From positions 1-64,000 of the IMG/VR virus record IMGVR_UViG_3300008110_000023: a stretch of DNA of 64,000 nt; one strand, 5' to 3'. The position numbers were made by a program, and so were the translations under genes. This DNA comes from a virus. Position 1 is the stretch's first letter. Every line of letters starts with the position of its first letter. Shown in pieces: positions 40,774 to 48,946 of the stretch. The notes beneath the pieces were generated by a model that made no database searches, was not told the origin of the DNA, and saw only the letters and a program-made list of their open reading frames with translations.

Positions 40774-40980
40774 TTACTGAGTTATGTAGTGATTAATAAC
40801 TATATCCAAAGCCATGTTGTAGAGTTGTAGTCTTAATAAATCTTGTATAGTATGATTAAGATGTACTTCTACATCTTTTTGTTCTTTAATATACTGAGCT
40901 ATAAGACCACAACCTACAGGTATTGGAATATCCATTACCCCATCTTTAGTATAACTTTCAATGATTTCTTTAGGAGTCAT
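40774..40980 (-). CDS. Hypothetical protein
   Basis: 68-aa ORF abutting its neighbours. Confidence 0.55.
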   Translation of the reverse strand: MTPKEIIESYTKDGVMDIPIPVGCGLIAQYIKEQKDVEVHLNHTIQDLLRLQLYNMALDIVINHYITQ

Positions 40981-43953: not shown

Positions 43954-43984
43954 CAAATATATAAAAAAGAGAGGAATTTTTCAA
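43954..43984 (-). promoter_or_regulatory. Sigma-A-type promoter TTG-N20-TATATTTG embedded in a terminator
   Basis: On +: CAAATATA at 43954-43961 and CAA at 43982-43984, 20-nt spacer. Confidence 0.75.
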
Positions 43985-43993
43985 CCCCTCTCT
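43963..43993 (-). terminator. Intrinsic terminator (AGAGAGG/CCTCTCT stem + U-tract)
   Basis: Minus strand AGAGAGGGGTTGAAAAATTCCTCTCTTTTTT, downstream of 44005..44277. Confidence 0.7.
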
Positions 43994-44004
43994 AATTTAT
44001 GTTA

Positions 44005-44277
44005 TTATGCGTTAAATGTATAATCATTTTCTGGCCTTACTTCAGGAGTTTCCTCTACAGAAGGTACTGTATTAATCTCAGCAACGTCATCCATTAATCT
44101 GATAGTATACTTTGCAGTACTTGCGCCATTTCTTTTCTTGATTAAACCAAAAGTTTCTAAAGCTTCAATAGCTTCTTTCTTACTAATGTTATACTTTAAG
44201 GCAATATCTTCATTTGATTTACCTAAACCATATTTCATAGTCAACAATTCACTTTTTTTAATTACAATCTCATTCAT
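44005..44277 (-). CDS. Small HTH-like protein
   Basis: GKSNEDIALKYNISKKEAIEAL resembles an HTH. Confidence 0.5.
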   Translation of the reverse strand: MNEIVIKKSELLTMKYGLGKSNEDIALKYNISKKEAIEALETFGLIKKRNGASTAKYTIRLMDDVAEINTVPSVEETPEVRPENDYTFNA

Positions 44278-44308: not shown

Positions 44309-45343
44309 TTAAGAATTAATTATTTCTTCTGTTTCTTCTTTTTGTTCAACAATTTGTGGTTTTCTTATAATCTGATCTTCATTAATATTTAATTTAAACT
44401 TAAAATCAGTTAACACATAACCATCTTTTCCCATTGTAAAAGTAGATTTGATTTCTTCAGATACTAAAGCATTAATATAATTAAAATCATCTTCTAATAT
44501 TAAAGCTTTTGGATTAGTTAAAAACTCACTTACAATAGCATTTACACCATGATTTTGAAAATTCTCAAAATAATTATGAGTAATTTGTCTAAATTTATCC
44601 CTAAAAGATTTAAAATTAGTAGAAGACCAATAGTTATTAAATCTCATATTATTTGCACAATCATTTGCAATCAATAGAAGATGTAATAAACTTGCTTCTA
44701 AATCATAATTAGTAATCATTTCCATACCTAACTTAACAGTTTCCTGATCATTAGACTTAAGCAATGGAGTTAATTGTTGTACTATATCAGCAGTTAATGG
44801 ACCATTTTGATTGTTAATTACACTATTTAAATCAAATACATTAATTATCTTAGTTCCTGCAAACTCATTATAAGCTTGTACTATAGTTTCTAAAATAGTT
44901 TTAGTATTACCATAACAGTGAACATAAACATATCTATTTAAATTAGGCGCAGAATTTAAATCAGTTTCATTTGAAAACTGTATATATTCATTCTTTTCAT
45001 CTACAGTAACACCAATATGTTGTAAAACTCTAGTATGAAGTCTTCCATTTAAAAAACTTATCCATTCTTTTACATCAATTACTACTGCATCTGCATAAGC
45101 TGTTGTTCTAGTAGTTTGTACAATATTATTATTGTTTCTACCATAATCAGTAAACTTATATCTAGGAAAAGTAACATCTTTCATAAAGAATACTTTGCCT
45201 GCAAAGCCATTAAAAGAAGTTTGATTACTTTCTAACCATTTAATAATAGTATTTTTTTCAGCCTCTGTTATACCAGAATATATTTGAGTACTATCTCCCC
45301 AATTATTTTTTGTTTTTACCTGAAATTCTTGTATCTGTATCAT
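44309..45343 (-). CDS. MoxR/VWA-associated protein (possible BRCT-like N-terminus, HEAT-like helix pair)
   Basis: KVFFMKDVTFPRYK...TRTTAYADAVVI and LLKSNDQETVKLGMEMI; TAATG-coupled to the ATPase. Confidence 0.5.
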   Translation of the reverse strand: MIQIQEFQVKTKNNWGDSTQIYSGITEAEKNTIIKWLESNQTSFNGFAGKVFFMKDVTFPRYKFTDYGRNNNNIVQTTRTTAYADAVVIDVKEWISFLNGRLHTRVLQHIGVTVDEKNEYIQFSNETDLNSAPNLNRYVYVHCYGNTKTILETIVQAYNEFAGTKIINVFDLNSVINNQNGPLTADIVQQLTPLLKSNDQETVKLGMEMITNYDLEASLLHLLLIANDCANNMRFNNYWSSTNFKSFRDKFRQITHNYFENFQNHGVNAIVSEFLTNPKALILEDDFNYINALVSEEIKSTFTMGKDGYVLTDFKFKLNINEDQIIRKPQIVEQKEETEEIINS

Positions 45344-46527
45344 TATGCTATAATGTATTTAGTTAAAGTTTGTCTTAATGTTAACATTTTAAATTTTTGA
45401 CCACATGCAAATAGTGATTTAACCATATGATAGTTAAGATCTGCTCCAAAATAATCTTCCATAATAAGCATTTCTATTCTATCTAAATAGTCTTTCTCTA
45501 TTTTGTTTTTCTCTGAGAAAGTTACAGAGTAGTTTATTGCTCTAGTACATAATACAGATGCAATATCTGCTCTATAAGTACCTAGATTAGTACTACCTAC
45601 TAATTCTCTTAGTTTAGTTCTTAAAGTATCCTCTGCTGCAGAAAACATTTCTTTTGGTGTGATTAGTTTATCTAATCTATTATTGATAAAACTAACAAAC
45701 ATACCAGAAGTTGCACTTCCAACACAGCCTTCACCTATCATTTGTATAAGAGGTAAATTGTTTTCAAAGTCTTTAATAGAACTAATTGCATTAAAGAAAG
45801 TAACTATACTTCTAGGATTTACTTTGCTATTTACAACTTCAGGATTAAGTAGTAAGAAGTTAATACATCTACCATCAATACCTTCTGCCTCAGCCCATTT
45901 AGCCCACTCTTGTACATCAAAAGTTAACTCTACACTGATATACCTAGTTTGAACTGCCTCATCTATTTCAGTAACAGTATATTTACCGTTAGCAGGATTA
46001 GCACTTAGTACTATATGCCAGTTCTTAGGTAGTTTCCAAGAGATATATTCTTGTCTATCTATTAATTCCATACATGCTTGGATAAAACGCTGATCTGCTC
46101 TAGTCCAGTCATCTAATAATAGAATACCTCCTTCAGTCTTATCTGCAATCCATTCTGGTGCTGCATAAGACATTCTTTTCTTACCTGTTAGTCTATATCC
46201 TTCTTTCTCATAAGAAGCAATAGCTACTTCATCTACCCAGTTAACTTCAGGTATAACATCTTCTGTTACTTTAGCCATTTGGAATTGCTTAACTGGAAAA
46301 CCAACTAAGTCACCTAATTCCTCTATTTGTGCTAAGTTTAATTTAACAAAGTCAAGTTGTAGTTCTTTAGCTAATTGTTGTATACTACTAGTTTTACCTA
46401 AACCAGCTTCACCAATAACTTCTACAGCTACTGTTTTCTTACCTTCTTTTTGAAGGTCTTGGTTATTGCTTATAATATGTTTTAAGAAATCTTTTACTTC
46501 AGTTGATTTTAACTTAATATGACTCAT
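45343..46527 (-). CDS. MoxR-type AAA+ ATPase
   Basis: GEAGLGKT Walker A, LAQIEELGDLVGFP, LLLDDWTRA Walker B, LSANP and NPRS. Confidence 0.88.
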   Translation of the reverse strand: MSHIKLKSTEVKDFLKHIISNNQDLQKEGKKTVAVEVIGEAGLGKTSSIQQLAKELQLDFVKLNLAQIEELGDLVGFPVKQFQMAKVTEDVIPEVNWVDEVAIASYEKEGYRLTGKKRMSYAAPEWIADKTEGGILLLDDWTRADQRFIQACMELIDRQEYISWKLPKNWHIVLSANPANGKYTVTEIDEAVQTRYISVELTFDVQEWAKWAEAEGIDGRCINFLLLNPEVVNSKVNPRSIVTFFNAISSIKDFENNLPLIQMIGEGCVGSATSGMFVSFINNRLDKLITPKEMFSAAEDTLRTKLRELVGSTNLGTYRADIASVLCTRAINYSVTFSEKNKIEKDYLDRIEMLIMEDYFGADLNYHMVKSLFACGQKFKMLTLRQTLTKYIIA

Positions 46528-46548
46528 TGTTAAGGTTTTTTAAATGTT

Positions 46549-47694
46549 TTAGTTTAATTGAATTTTATAACCAGGAAGACTTTCATTTATAGGTGAAACT
46601 GTACTGTGTACCCAAAGCATTTTACCTCTAGGTTGTATACTACAATTACATTCACCATCTGTTAAATAAATAAGACTGCAATACTTGCCATAGTTATCAT
46701 TATAATACTCTATAACAGGATCAAATTCAGTCCCACCTCTTCCTTTTATTTCTATTTGAGGATTTCCCTTGTATTCCTCTACCCCACGTATTTTGGCATC
46801 ACATTGAATGATTGTAACTTTTGTATCTGTTTTATAAATATGATGAATTTCATTCATAAATTCACTTAATTCACCATCACTTACAGATCCACTAGTATCT
46901 ATTGCTACTAAGATATGCCGTTTACTTTTAATCTTTAGCGCAGGATTGCCTGGATATCTCCTAGAATCTTTTTTACGTGTTTTGATAGTATATATCTTAT
47001 TACTACCACCTGCAAATCTTCTAAGATAACTTCTCCAATTAAACTTAGCTGGTTCTGGATTTAATAGTCTATCTAAAAATCCTTTTAATTCTCCTGGTAC
47101 ATTACCTTTGTTTTTAACAGCTTCATAAGTAGCTTTCATTTGATATTCTACTTGTCTATCTATTAATTGTCTTTCTGCATCACTTAATTTACTAAACTGG
47201 TCCCAAGTTGCATGTTCTTTTGCAAACTCTGGATCTGCTAGCATATTCTTAAGTGTTTCACTCTTGTCTTTATCCTTCAATAATTTCTTATAGTAATAAT
47301 CTGTATCCTTTAAAGGCTCTAGAACTATTTCAGGAAAACTTTGTATATGCAAAAAGTCAGAGGTTTTATACTTAGGATCTATTAACTGATTGATTGCAAT
47401 ATCTGCAGCTATATTAAACAATAGTTTATCACTATACTTATCTCTCAATGTTAAATGAAAGAAACATATATGCAATAACTCATGCTTAAGAACTCCATAC
47501 TTTGTATTCTCAGTTAAACCTTCCCAAAATGTAGGATTAACTACTAATTCTGTATTAATACCTTGCTTTCCTACTCCAGCAGTTGGTACTCTAGGATCTA
47601 CTTTTTTATTTAAGGTGCTCATAAATACACCATAAAAAGGCTCATTAATCATTAATGCCCTACTTATCTTGCTTACGCTCTGTAATACATCCAT
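46549..47694 (-). CDS. Metallopeptidase (HExxH) + von Willebrand A domain protein
   Basis: KHELLHI...NIAADIAIN; MIDAS DTSGS, GRGGTEF and YLTDG. Confidence 0.88.
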   Translation of the reverse strand: MDVLQSVSKISRALMINEPFYGVFMSTLNKKVDPRVPTAGVGKQGINTELVVNPTFWEGLTENTKYGVLKHELLHICFFHLTLRDKYSDKLLFNIAADIAINQLIDPKYKTSDFLHIQSFPEIVLEPLKDTDYYYKKLLKDKDKSETLKNMLADPEFAKEHATWDQFSKLSDAERQLIDRQVEYQMKATYEAVKNKGNVPGELKGFLDRLLNPEPAKFNWRSYLRRFAGGSNKIYTIKTRKKDSRRYPGNPALKIKSKRHILVAIDTSGSVSDGELSEFMNEIHHIYKTDTKVTIIQCDAKIRGVEEYKGNPQIEIKGRGGTEFDPVIEYYNDNYGKYCSLIYLTDGECNCSIQPRGKMLWVHSTVSPINESLPGYKIQLN

Positions 47695-47929
47695 TTGTTT
47701 TTAATATTTCATAAGCTAATTGTCTGTCTATTATATTATCACTATACATCATATGTAAAATAGTATCTTTATTCTCTAATAAGTCTAAATCTACATAATG
47801 TAGAGTAGTTATATTTGTATAAAATACATACTCTCTTTTTATACTATCTTTATAAAAATAACGTAATTCATTATCATCAACAGAAGTTTTTGCATAGTGA
47901 TATATTGCATATTTATCTTCTACATACAT
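47660..47929 (-). CDS. Small protein with HEAT-like motif upstream of the VWA gene
   Basis: MMYSDNIIDRQLAYEIL; overlaps both the primase and the VWA gene. Confidence 0.5.
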   Translation of the reverse strand: MYVEDKYAIYHYAKTSVDDNELRYFYKDSIKREYVFYTNITTLHYVDLDLLENKDTILHMMYSDNIIDRQLAYEILKTNGCITERKQDK

Positions 47930-48911: not shown

Positions 48912-48946
48912 AAAAAAAGTGGATAAAGATTAACTCTATCCACTTA
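48912..48946 (-). terminator. Intrinsic terminator after SSB
   Basis: AAGTGGATA...TATCCACTT stem with T7 tail on the minus strand. Confidence 0.75.

Follow-up and report, generated by a model that had tools for sequence, protein, structure and literature searches.

Replication-arm genes of an uncultured crAss-like phage for a predicted MoxR/midasin-type ATPase, its zincin-vWA partner and a strictly linked third protein

Gene layout of the block

The window analysed here comprises 64,000 nucleotides (positions 1 to 64,000 of the virus record IMGVR_UViG_3300008110_000023), i.e. the larger part of this 85-kb record, and belongs to an uncultured freshwater crAss-like phage. Four tightly packed open reading frames (ORFs) on the minus strand fill positions 44309-47929 and encode a small protein (p89), a HExxH- and vWA-containing protein (p381), a MoxR-type AAA+ ATPase (p394) and a protein of 344 aa (p344), each ORF lying exactly where an earlier note on this DNA, made from the letters alone, had placed it:

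47660..47929, minus strand: ORF of p89 (89 aa), its N-terminal half rich in beta structure and its C-terminus formed by a HEAT-like hairpin
46549..47694, minus strand: gene of p381, in which a predicted zincin metallopeptidase, DUF2201_N, is joined to the vWA-like DUF2201, assigned by Pfam and phrog_1314
45343..46527, minus strand: gene of p394, a predicted MoxR/midasin-type AAA+ ATPase, assigned by phrog_1297 and PDB profile matches
44309..45343, minus strand: gene of p344; in the model a beta-hairpin and a helix at the N-terminus are followed by a BRCT-like domain, a HEAT/ARM-like half and lastly an acidic tail

The p89 gene overlaps its neighbours on both sides, by 10 nt at the primase stop and by 35 nt at the p381 start, and the stop of p394 and the start of p344 have one base in common. 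Relatives were surveyed in the best 80 of the 510 IMG/VR contigs that encode relatives of the ATPase, together with 12 loci reached via p344; where single loci have to be told apart, they are denoted by L and a number. Genes downstream of the ATPase gene were counted in the loci with at least 1.1 kb beyond it (n=68), and small genes upstream of the vWA gene in 76 related contigs.

The conserved ATPase and zincin-vWA core

The earlier note had taken p394 and p381 for a MoxR ATPase and a VWA protein with a metallopeptidase motif, and both the domain matches and the invariant catalytic and metal-ion-dependent adhesion site (MIDAS) residues bear this out. In p381, DUF2201_N (53.2 bits against a cut-off of 23.2, E 4e-14) lies N-terminally to the vWA-like DUF2201 (61.5 bits, cut-off 26.4, E 1e-16). 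In an alignment with homologues from crAss-like, N4-like, Thermus and Moorella phages, H71, E72, H75 and H80 of the predicted zinc site are invariant, and so are the MIDAS residues, namely D266, S268 and S270 in the DTSGS motif, the GGT at 320-322 including T322, and D346. When compared with the PDB, a profile of the zinc-site region finds the minimal zincin MJ1213 (4qhf, E 0.003). Because these residues are invariant across distant phages, both sites look functional, and p381 can be described as a predicted zincin peptidase with an intact site, fused to a vWA domain with an intact MIDAS:

47455..47484, minus strand: HExxH and a His further on (H71, E72, H75, H80), the predicted zinc site of p381, invariant columns
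46885..46899, minus strand: MIDAS motif DxSxS of p381 (DTSGS, residues 266-270), completed by GGT 320-322 and D346, invariant columns

The ATPase p394 matches phrog_1297 with an E-value of 5e-35. Among the Pfam families, AAA is found above its cut-off (22 bits), AAA_5 falls slightly short (20.5 bits against 22) and AAA_3 gives no match, while the homologue in L005, which is 58% identical to p394, scores above the cut-off for AAA_5 (23.4 bits) and below it for AAA_3 (20.5 bits against 27). The best PDB matches of a p394 profile are the AAA_5 modules of midasin (E 1.7e-22), and the MoxR structure 2r44 is also recovered (E 3.4e-5). Walker A (GEAGLGKT), Walker B (ILLLDD), the NP motif N177-P178 further downstream and the Arg-motif residue R195 are all invariant in the alignments. 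We take the Walker B motif and the following WTRA to correspond to the MoxR-style 'DExNRA' region, here with DD. On the strength of these profile matches and motifs, p394 is assigned to the midasin/MoxR branch of AAA+ ATPases:

46387..46413, minus strand: Walker A motif of p394, GEAGLGKTS, residues 39-47, with invariant G42, G44 and K45
46108..46125, minus strand: Walker B motif of p394, ILLLDD, residues 135-140, followed by WTRA, invariant in the alignment

Both core genes are strongly conserved (47-59% identity across the aligned relatives). The values are 47-52% for p381 across the clade, where its architecture is constant, and 53-59% for the ATPase in the best 80 of the 510 contigs; the gene order is vWA followed by ATPase in 80 of 80 related loci. 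Homologues of p381 are also encoded in 283 cultured-phage records, mostly N4-like. A search of the block proteins against NCBIfam returned no informative match, and of the four proteins the ATPase alone gave matches to the PADLOC defence models, namely weak P-loop matches to BrxF and IetA (E 3e-4 to 0.01); p89, p381 and p344 gave none.

In some relatives the core genes have been invaded by endonuclease genes. In L004 and L012 a gene for a GIY-YIG endonuclease interrupts that of the ATPase, and in L012 the vWA gene is split as well, by a gene for a LAGLIDADG endonuclease. Homing elements usually settle in conserved, indispensable genes, and the invasion of the vWA and ATPase genes therefore fits conserved essential genes. 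Taken together, the conservation, the position in the replication arm and the endonuclease invasion are typical of conserved housekeeping genes. The homing-endonuclease genes lie at L012:6435-7334, L012:8183-8896 and L004:986-1729, and the GIY-YIG/NUMOD insertions in the ATPase genes of the two contigs are seemingly at the same place; these insertions are probably either introns or free-standing homing elements.

The strictly linked third partner

Apart from the two core proteins, p344 is a strictly linked third component of the block. A gene of the p344 superfamily directly follows the ATPase gene in all of the 68 loci that could be counted: 19 carry p344 itself, 42 carry a paralogue of about 345 aa and then p344, and the remaining 7 either carry the paralogue alone or end too close to the gene to tell. 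The tandem paralogue is related to the p344 family over 283 columns (hhalign probability 94%, P = 1.7e-7). The p344-type paralogues in such tandems are highly divergent, as exemplified by L017:10117-11157 and L017:11150-12316. A p344 profile finds 270 clusters at 50% identity. Searches with p344 against Pfam, PHROG, NCBIfam and PADLOC gave no match, and 56 diverse members of the family gave no convincing match in Pfam and none in PHROG. When 185,579 genomes of bacteria and archaea were scanned by pattern, an approach of limited sensitivity, no p344 relative was found.

The model of p344 calculated from the 56 sequences is confident (predicted local distance difference test, pLDDT, 90; predicted template modelling score, pTM, 0.83), and its sole significant structural neighbours are uncharacterised proteins of crAss-like phages and other podoviruses. 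It divides the protein into the following parts:

44816..45211, minus strand: BRCT-like domain of p344, residues 45-176, with the invariant FPRYK (59-63), from fold search
44384..44809, minus strand: HEAT/ARM-like helical half of p344, residues 179-320, from structure superposition and profile comparison
44699..44797, minus strand: HEAT-like hairpin of p344, residues 183-215 (helix, turn SND, helix VKLGMEMITN), from hhalign and the model
44312..44371, minus strand: acidic C-terminal tail of p344, of low confidence (pLDDT 48-64)

The possible BRCT-like segment at the N-terminus of p344, suggested in the earlier note, finds support in the predicted fold alone. The N-terminal domain, modelled alone (pLDDT 76) and compared with 48,161 PDB chains in a wide search with VIA-align, retrieves mostly BRCT domains among the top 50 chains (Z 3.1-5.1), including those of MCPH1, Brc1, XRCC1, PTIP, MDC1, Dbf4, BARD1, REV1 and TopBP1. 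The Pfam BRCT family does not match p344 even at E up to 10, while the tandem paralogue in L017 matches it at the corresponding position with 14.9 bits (E 0.032). A search of the ESM Atlas with the N-terminal domain gave no usable match, the Atlas model of this protein being poor. The first BRCT-like helix begins with the FPRYK motif, whose P60 and R61 are the sole residues invariant in all 56 diverse members. A conserved basic residue at the start of helix 1 and a replication setting are likewise found for established BRCT domains (e.g. in NAD+-dependent ligase, XRCC1, Dbf4, TopBP1 and Rev1), whose fold appears similar to that predicted for residues 45-176; unlike them, p344 shows no sequence-level membership of the family and carries an insert of about 35 residues (the poorly modelled residues 103-136).

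In the C-terminal half, residues 179-264 superpose on ARM, HEAT and TOG structures (Z 5.3-6.6 over 66-85 residues), namely beta-catenin, importin-beta, TOG domains and designed armadillo proteins. The tail carries a net charge of -3 or lower in its last 20 residues in 34 of the 56 members. Such acidic tails often finish with a few hydrophobic residues, an ending that recalls the acidic tails of SSB and T7 gp2.5.

A HEAT-like hairpin on both flanks of the core

The earlier note had also pointed out a HEAT-like signature common to the proteins on the two flanks, p89 and p344, and profile comparison places this likeness on firmer ground. Neither family has a stretch more conserved than this motif. 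The C-terminal LAYEILKTNGC of p89 is invariant among its 8 homologues. p89 itself has no match in Pfam, PHROG or NCBIfam. BLASTP of p89 against p344 detects no similarity, and neither did hhalign with 8 close sequences of each family, a result later overturned by richer alignments. A profile built from 17 small-protein hairpins matches the p89 family with P = 1.3e-12:

47678..47776, minus strand: HEAT-like hairpin of p89, residues 52-84, from the small-protein hairpin profile

In the p344 family the same profile aligns to residues 183-215 with a probability of 88% and P = 3.4e-6 (P = 2.5e-6 without the p89 of the window), against P = 0.03-0.44 in control comparisons with the ATPase, the vWA protein and the N-terminal domain of p344. 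In the p344 model this region forms two helices, 185-195 and 200-210, with a turn between them. In the PDB the hairpin profile agrees best with alphaRep repeats, which are designed, HEAT-like and built on the pattern LIKALKDEDxxVR (E 0.005), and the hairpin follows the pattern L..ML.S.D...R..A..IL of HEAT-like (PBS-lyase/alphaRep) repeats, although such solenoids are long, while p89 has one hairpin and p344 about two repeats. The Pfam families HEAT, HEAT_2, HEAT_PBS and Arm match neither p89 nor p344 nor the other small proteins (E up to 10), and one small protein has sub-threshold matches to the HEAT/ARM families Nipped-B_C and V-ATPase_H_C. From these sequence profiles we regard the shared motif as real and as a predicted HEAT-type helical hairpin. 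The 'SxD' residues, which the earlier note had proposed as a docking determinant, find no support in this role: S and D are not invariant beyond close relatives, and they occupy the position of the 'DED' turn of the alphaRep repeats. Being placed in the interhelix turn and not invariant, they look structural.

Small genes upstream of the vWA gene extend this picture. In 53 of 76 loci, the ORF whose end touches or overlaps the start of the vWA gene belongs to one of three clusters of proteins of 96-146 aa. The largest cluster (49 loci) matches residues 179-320 of p344 over 122 columns (probability 82.5%, P = 9.9e-6) and the hairpin profile with P = 1.8e-5, the second matches p344 179-320 with P = 8.7e-6, and the third is weaker (P = 0.007); controls gave P = 0.3-0.75. 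Conversely, hmmsearch with the upstream-ORF profile returns p344 proteins as its top matches, at their HEAT-like region. Thus, in most relatives the upstream small gene appears, by profile comparison, to encode a stand-alone homologue of the helical half of p344, and the linkage of the motif to MoxR/vWA loci proposed earlier is found on both sides of the core. p89 occupies the same upstream position but retains the hairpin alone. Orthology between p89 and this common small gene was weighed and set aside, given that the hairpin is N-terminal in the common family and C-terminal in p89 and that the direct comparison gives P = 0.003.

Small ORFs with the p89-type hairpin are expanded in certain relatives: the contig that L005 and L008 come from has 8 of them and L012 at least 7, while L004 and L027 have one each. 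What most of them have in common is the hairpin plus a GD[IV] segment at the N-terminus, and nothing more. The expanded families, of about 80-165 aa, are scattered on both sides of the module (L008:1830-15877 and L012:2549-16904). In the window itself, a 68-aa ORF at 40774-40980 on the minus strand ends in NMALDIVINHY, a weak match to helix 2 of the hairpin profile (E 0.004), so that this ORF may belong to the hairpin family in degenerate form or match by chance.

These distributions bear on an explanation in which the ATPase/zincin-vWA machine is real and the hairpin has no coupling role, being a generic HEAT signature or a relic of duplication, with p89 an unrelated early protein. It agrees with the generic, designed nature of the best PDB matches of the hairpin profile, with the p89-type proteins of L008 and L012, which have no fixed place beside the block and are scattered along the early arm, with the presence of such proteins in 1 of 80 further contigs surveyed, and with L006, L007 and L009, where no hairpin protein occurs within 10 kb upstream (none was found in the whole records behind these loci either, which are 10-20% complete). 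Against it stand the ORF at the vWA start, homologous to the helical half of p344 in 53 of 76 contigs, and the overlap between the small gene and the vWA gene, which suggests translational coupling. We consider this explanation unlikely, albeit one to be taken seriously.

Genomic setting

The neighbours of the block are replication and recombination genes, namely those for DnaB, primase, a RusA-like resolvase and a FEN-like nuclease; in the window it sits between the primase gene and the RusA and FEN genes. The structural arm is distant and on the opposite strand. The earlier note had described the four genes as inserted after the primase, which is imprecise: in the relatives the block is not always adjacent to the primase gene, as it is in the window, and forms instead a fixed part of the replication arm. 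Two terminator-like hairpins enclose the region:

48917..48945, minus strand: terminator-like hairpin that lies before the primase gene and likely bounds the transcription unit on its 5' side
43968..43993, minus strand: terminator-like hairpin after the p90 gene, with an AGAGAG...CTCTCT stem, likely 3' boundary of the unit

It is plausible that the genes for primase, p89, the vWA protein, the ATPase, p344 and p90 form one transcription unit between these two hairpins.

Comparison with known systems

The ATPase/peptidase-vWA pair itself is already known in phages (PHROG 1297 and 1314; N4-like Schitoviridae, Thermus phiFa, Moorella MTATph1 and jumbo phages). These phages share with the window the core proteins, their domain architectures and the conserved HExxH and MIDAS residues, and in cultured phages the pair is also found among replication genes, beside helicase, polymerase or RNase H genes. 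They differ in the order of the genes (ATPase followed by vWA, the reverse of the order seen here) and in the lack of a p344-type gene and of HEAT-hairpin proteins, and identity between the block proteins and their cultured-phage counterparts is 20-30%. Neither blastn with the block nor tblastn with p344 found a match in 50,697 cultured or deposited phage records, and a search of a literature library found no paper that pairs crAss-like phages with MoxR or VWA, or Schitoviridae with MoxR. Against this background, what appears to be new is the p344 family as a third partner, the shared HEAT-type hairpin and the presence of the same domain on both flanks.

Iyer et al. (2021) described MoxR and the peptidase-vWA protein of group 2.2 jumbo phages as a 'chaperone-cochaperone pair', which they proposed to act in virion assembly (PMC7824862). 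By this proposal the MoxR-vWA pair would fold structural proteins and the zincin would process them, as a virion-assembly chaperone and protease. The intact peptidase site agrees with it, and there is a precedent in Acidianus two-tailed virus, where a role in the tail was shown for p618/p892 (PMC7824862). In the phage studied here, however, the block lies on the replication/early strand, bracketed together with the primase gene by the terminator-like hairpins and far from the structural arm with its opposite orientation; in N4-like, Thermus and Moorella phages, too, the pair adjoins helicase, polymerase or RNase H genes, and the linked partner carries a BRCT-like domain, typical of DNA-transaction proteins. 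We therefore regard virion assembly as an improbable function of this block, and the findings point to a role in replication instead.

A second comparison concerns the MoxR-vWA ternary conflict systems of bacteria, in which the third component is a VMAP or iSTAND protein and effector-associated domains (EADs) serve as coupling adaptors, one copy being present on the core third component and more on neighbouring proteins (Kaur, Burroughs, Iyer and Aravind 2020, PMC7159879). In layout the block is alike: three conserved components are grouped around MoxR and vWA, the third is rich in helices and has an adaptor domain, and a small module carried by a core component recurs in small proteins that are its neighbours or lie dispersed. 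By analogy, the EAD would be the closest conceptual precedent for a HEAT-like module on two flanks. There are also differences. p344 matches no Pfam or PADLOC family; the variable effectors of the conflict systems are C-terminal to the vWA domain, whereas in p381 the peptidase is N-terminal and the vWA domain C-terminal; and the conflict systems are diversifying bacterial immunity islands, whereas the block is highly conserved and belongs to the replication arm of a lytic phage.

Another reading, close to the inference of the earlier note, takes the block as a host-takeover or anti-defence protease, to which hairpin-tagged small proteins would deliver host defence proteins as interchangeable adaptors. 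A position in the early arm would suit such a protease, as would the arrays of 8 and 7 divergent small proteins with a common C-terminal hairpin and often an N-terminal GD[IV], a layout resembling the EAD logic of conflict systems. Yet the window phage has one such small protein and most relatives have none that is detectable (1 of 80 further contigs has one). Nothing was found that points to host defence proteins as the target: the core is strongly conserved (the ATPase in particular), it has no PADLOC or defence-family match beyond the weak P-loop ones, and its location and invasion by homing endonucleases follow the housekeeping pattern. Of the explanations considered here we hold this to be the least probable.

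A functional analogy, and no closer relation, can be drawn with SPRTN/Wss1 and Cdc48/p97, in which a zincin protease and an AAA+ unfoldase are brought to DNA or the replisome by adaptor modules; the AAA+ clade differs from that of p394.

Possible function of the block

We tentatively favour the explanation that the block is a three-component ('ternary') MoxR system of phages, residing in the replication arm of an uncultured crAss-like clade, with p344 as a targeting adaptor; we would put the probability of this at roughly 45%. In such a system the ring of the ATPase would act via its vWA partner, by analogy with RavA-ViaA, CbbQ-CbbO, NorQ-NorD and CobS-CobT, and p344 would direct the ATPase/zincin-vWA machine to its targets. 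The BRCT-like domain, with its invariant basic FPRYK patch, may hold a phosphate-bearing ligand (DNA or a replisome phosphoprotein), while the HEAT-like half may couple p344 to the machine or to its clients. The stand-alone HEAT-like small protein could pair with that half of p344 or compete for the same site, and would then be a regulator or a second adaptor. Finally, in the early or replication phase the zincin would cut, or the ATPase remodel, a client associated with DNA.

The overlap between the ATPase stop and the p344 start counts in favour of the ternary system, as does the occurrence of the MoxR/vWA pair in replication modules of unrelated phages. So do the domain identities, the strict linkage of p344 to the ATPase gene, the BRCT-like and ARM/HEAT-like fold evidence, the HEAT-like module present on both flanks, the homing endonucleases in the core genes and the EAD precedent. 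The replication context, the BRCT-like domain and the homing endonucleases favour a housekeeping role at DNA and count against both virion assembly and anti-defence.

Several observations weigh against the ternary system with p344 as adaptor. Walker B of p394 reads DD instead of DE. Foldseek against the PDB finds nothing significant for either the whole p344 model or its N-terminal domain, the Z scores behind the BRCT-likeness are low and the Pfam BRCT score of the L017 paralogue is below the threshold of 21.3 bits; HEAT/ARM matches at Z of about 6 are common for helical repeats. Among the closest relatives, L006, L007 and L009 have no detectable HEAT-like gene upstream of the vWA gene, and in L005 the HEAT-like small gene is present but two genes upstream; the small partner is therefore either not obligatory or has diverged past detection. 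There is also the published virion-assembly proposal for the pair, discussed above.

A further step would be to see in the HEAT-like module a homotypic coupling device that plugs the BRCT adaptor and changeable small proteins into a replisome-associated AAA+/zincin machine. This extension, modelled on the analogies given above, seems to us doubtful and on balance improbable. If true, it would mean targeted removal of proteins on DNA, possibly including the clearing of DNA-bound host proteins or injected phage proteins.

MoxR/DUF2201 modules are common, and with 283 cultured-phage records the MoxR/peptidase-vWA pair is among the most widespread phage gene pairs without known function; the value of the present case lies in the defined partners it provides for such a pair. 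To this pair the clade adds a strictly linked third partner with BRCT-like and HEAT-like domains, as well as a stand-alone HEAT-like copy on the opposite side. The defined partners lead to testable hypotheses about what binds to what, about the ligand of the BRCT-like domain (DNA or phosphoproteins) and about the substrate of the zincin.

Other features of the window

DNA of the window recurs in freshwater and lake metagenomes of several studies; among the listed holders of this DNA there are no RNA sequencing runs. The p90 gene, located at 44005-44277 on the minus strand directly downstream of the p344 gene and within the terminator-bounded unit, encodes a protein of 90 aa that weakly matches the transcriptional-regulator family phrog_36 (E 6e-4). 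Its homologue in L009 is located elsewhere, which places p90 outside the conserved block.

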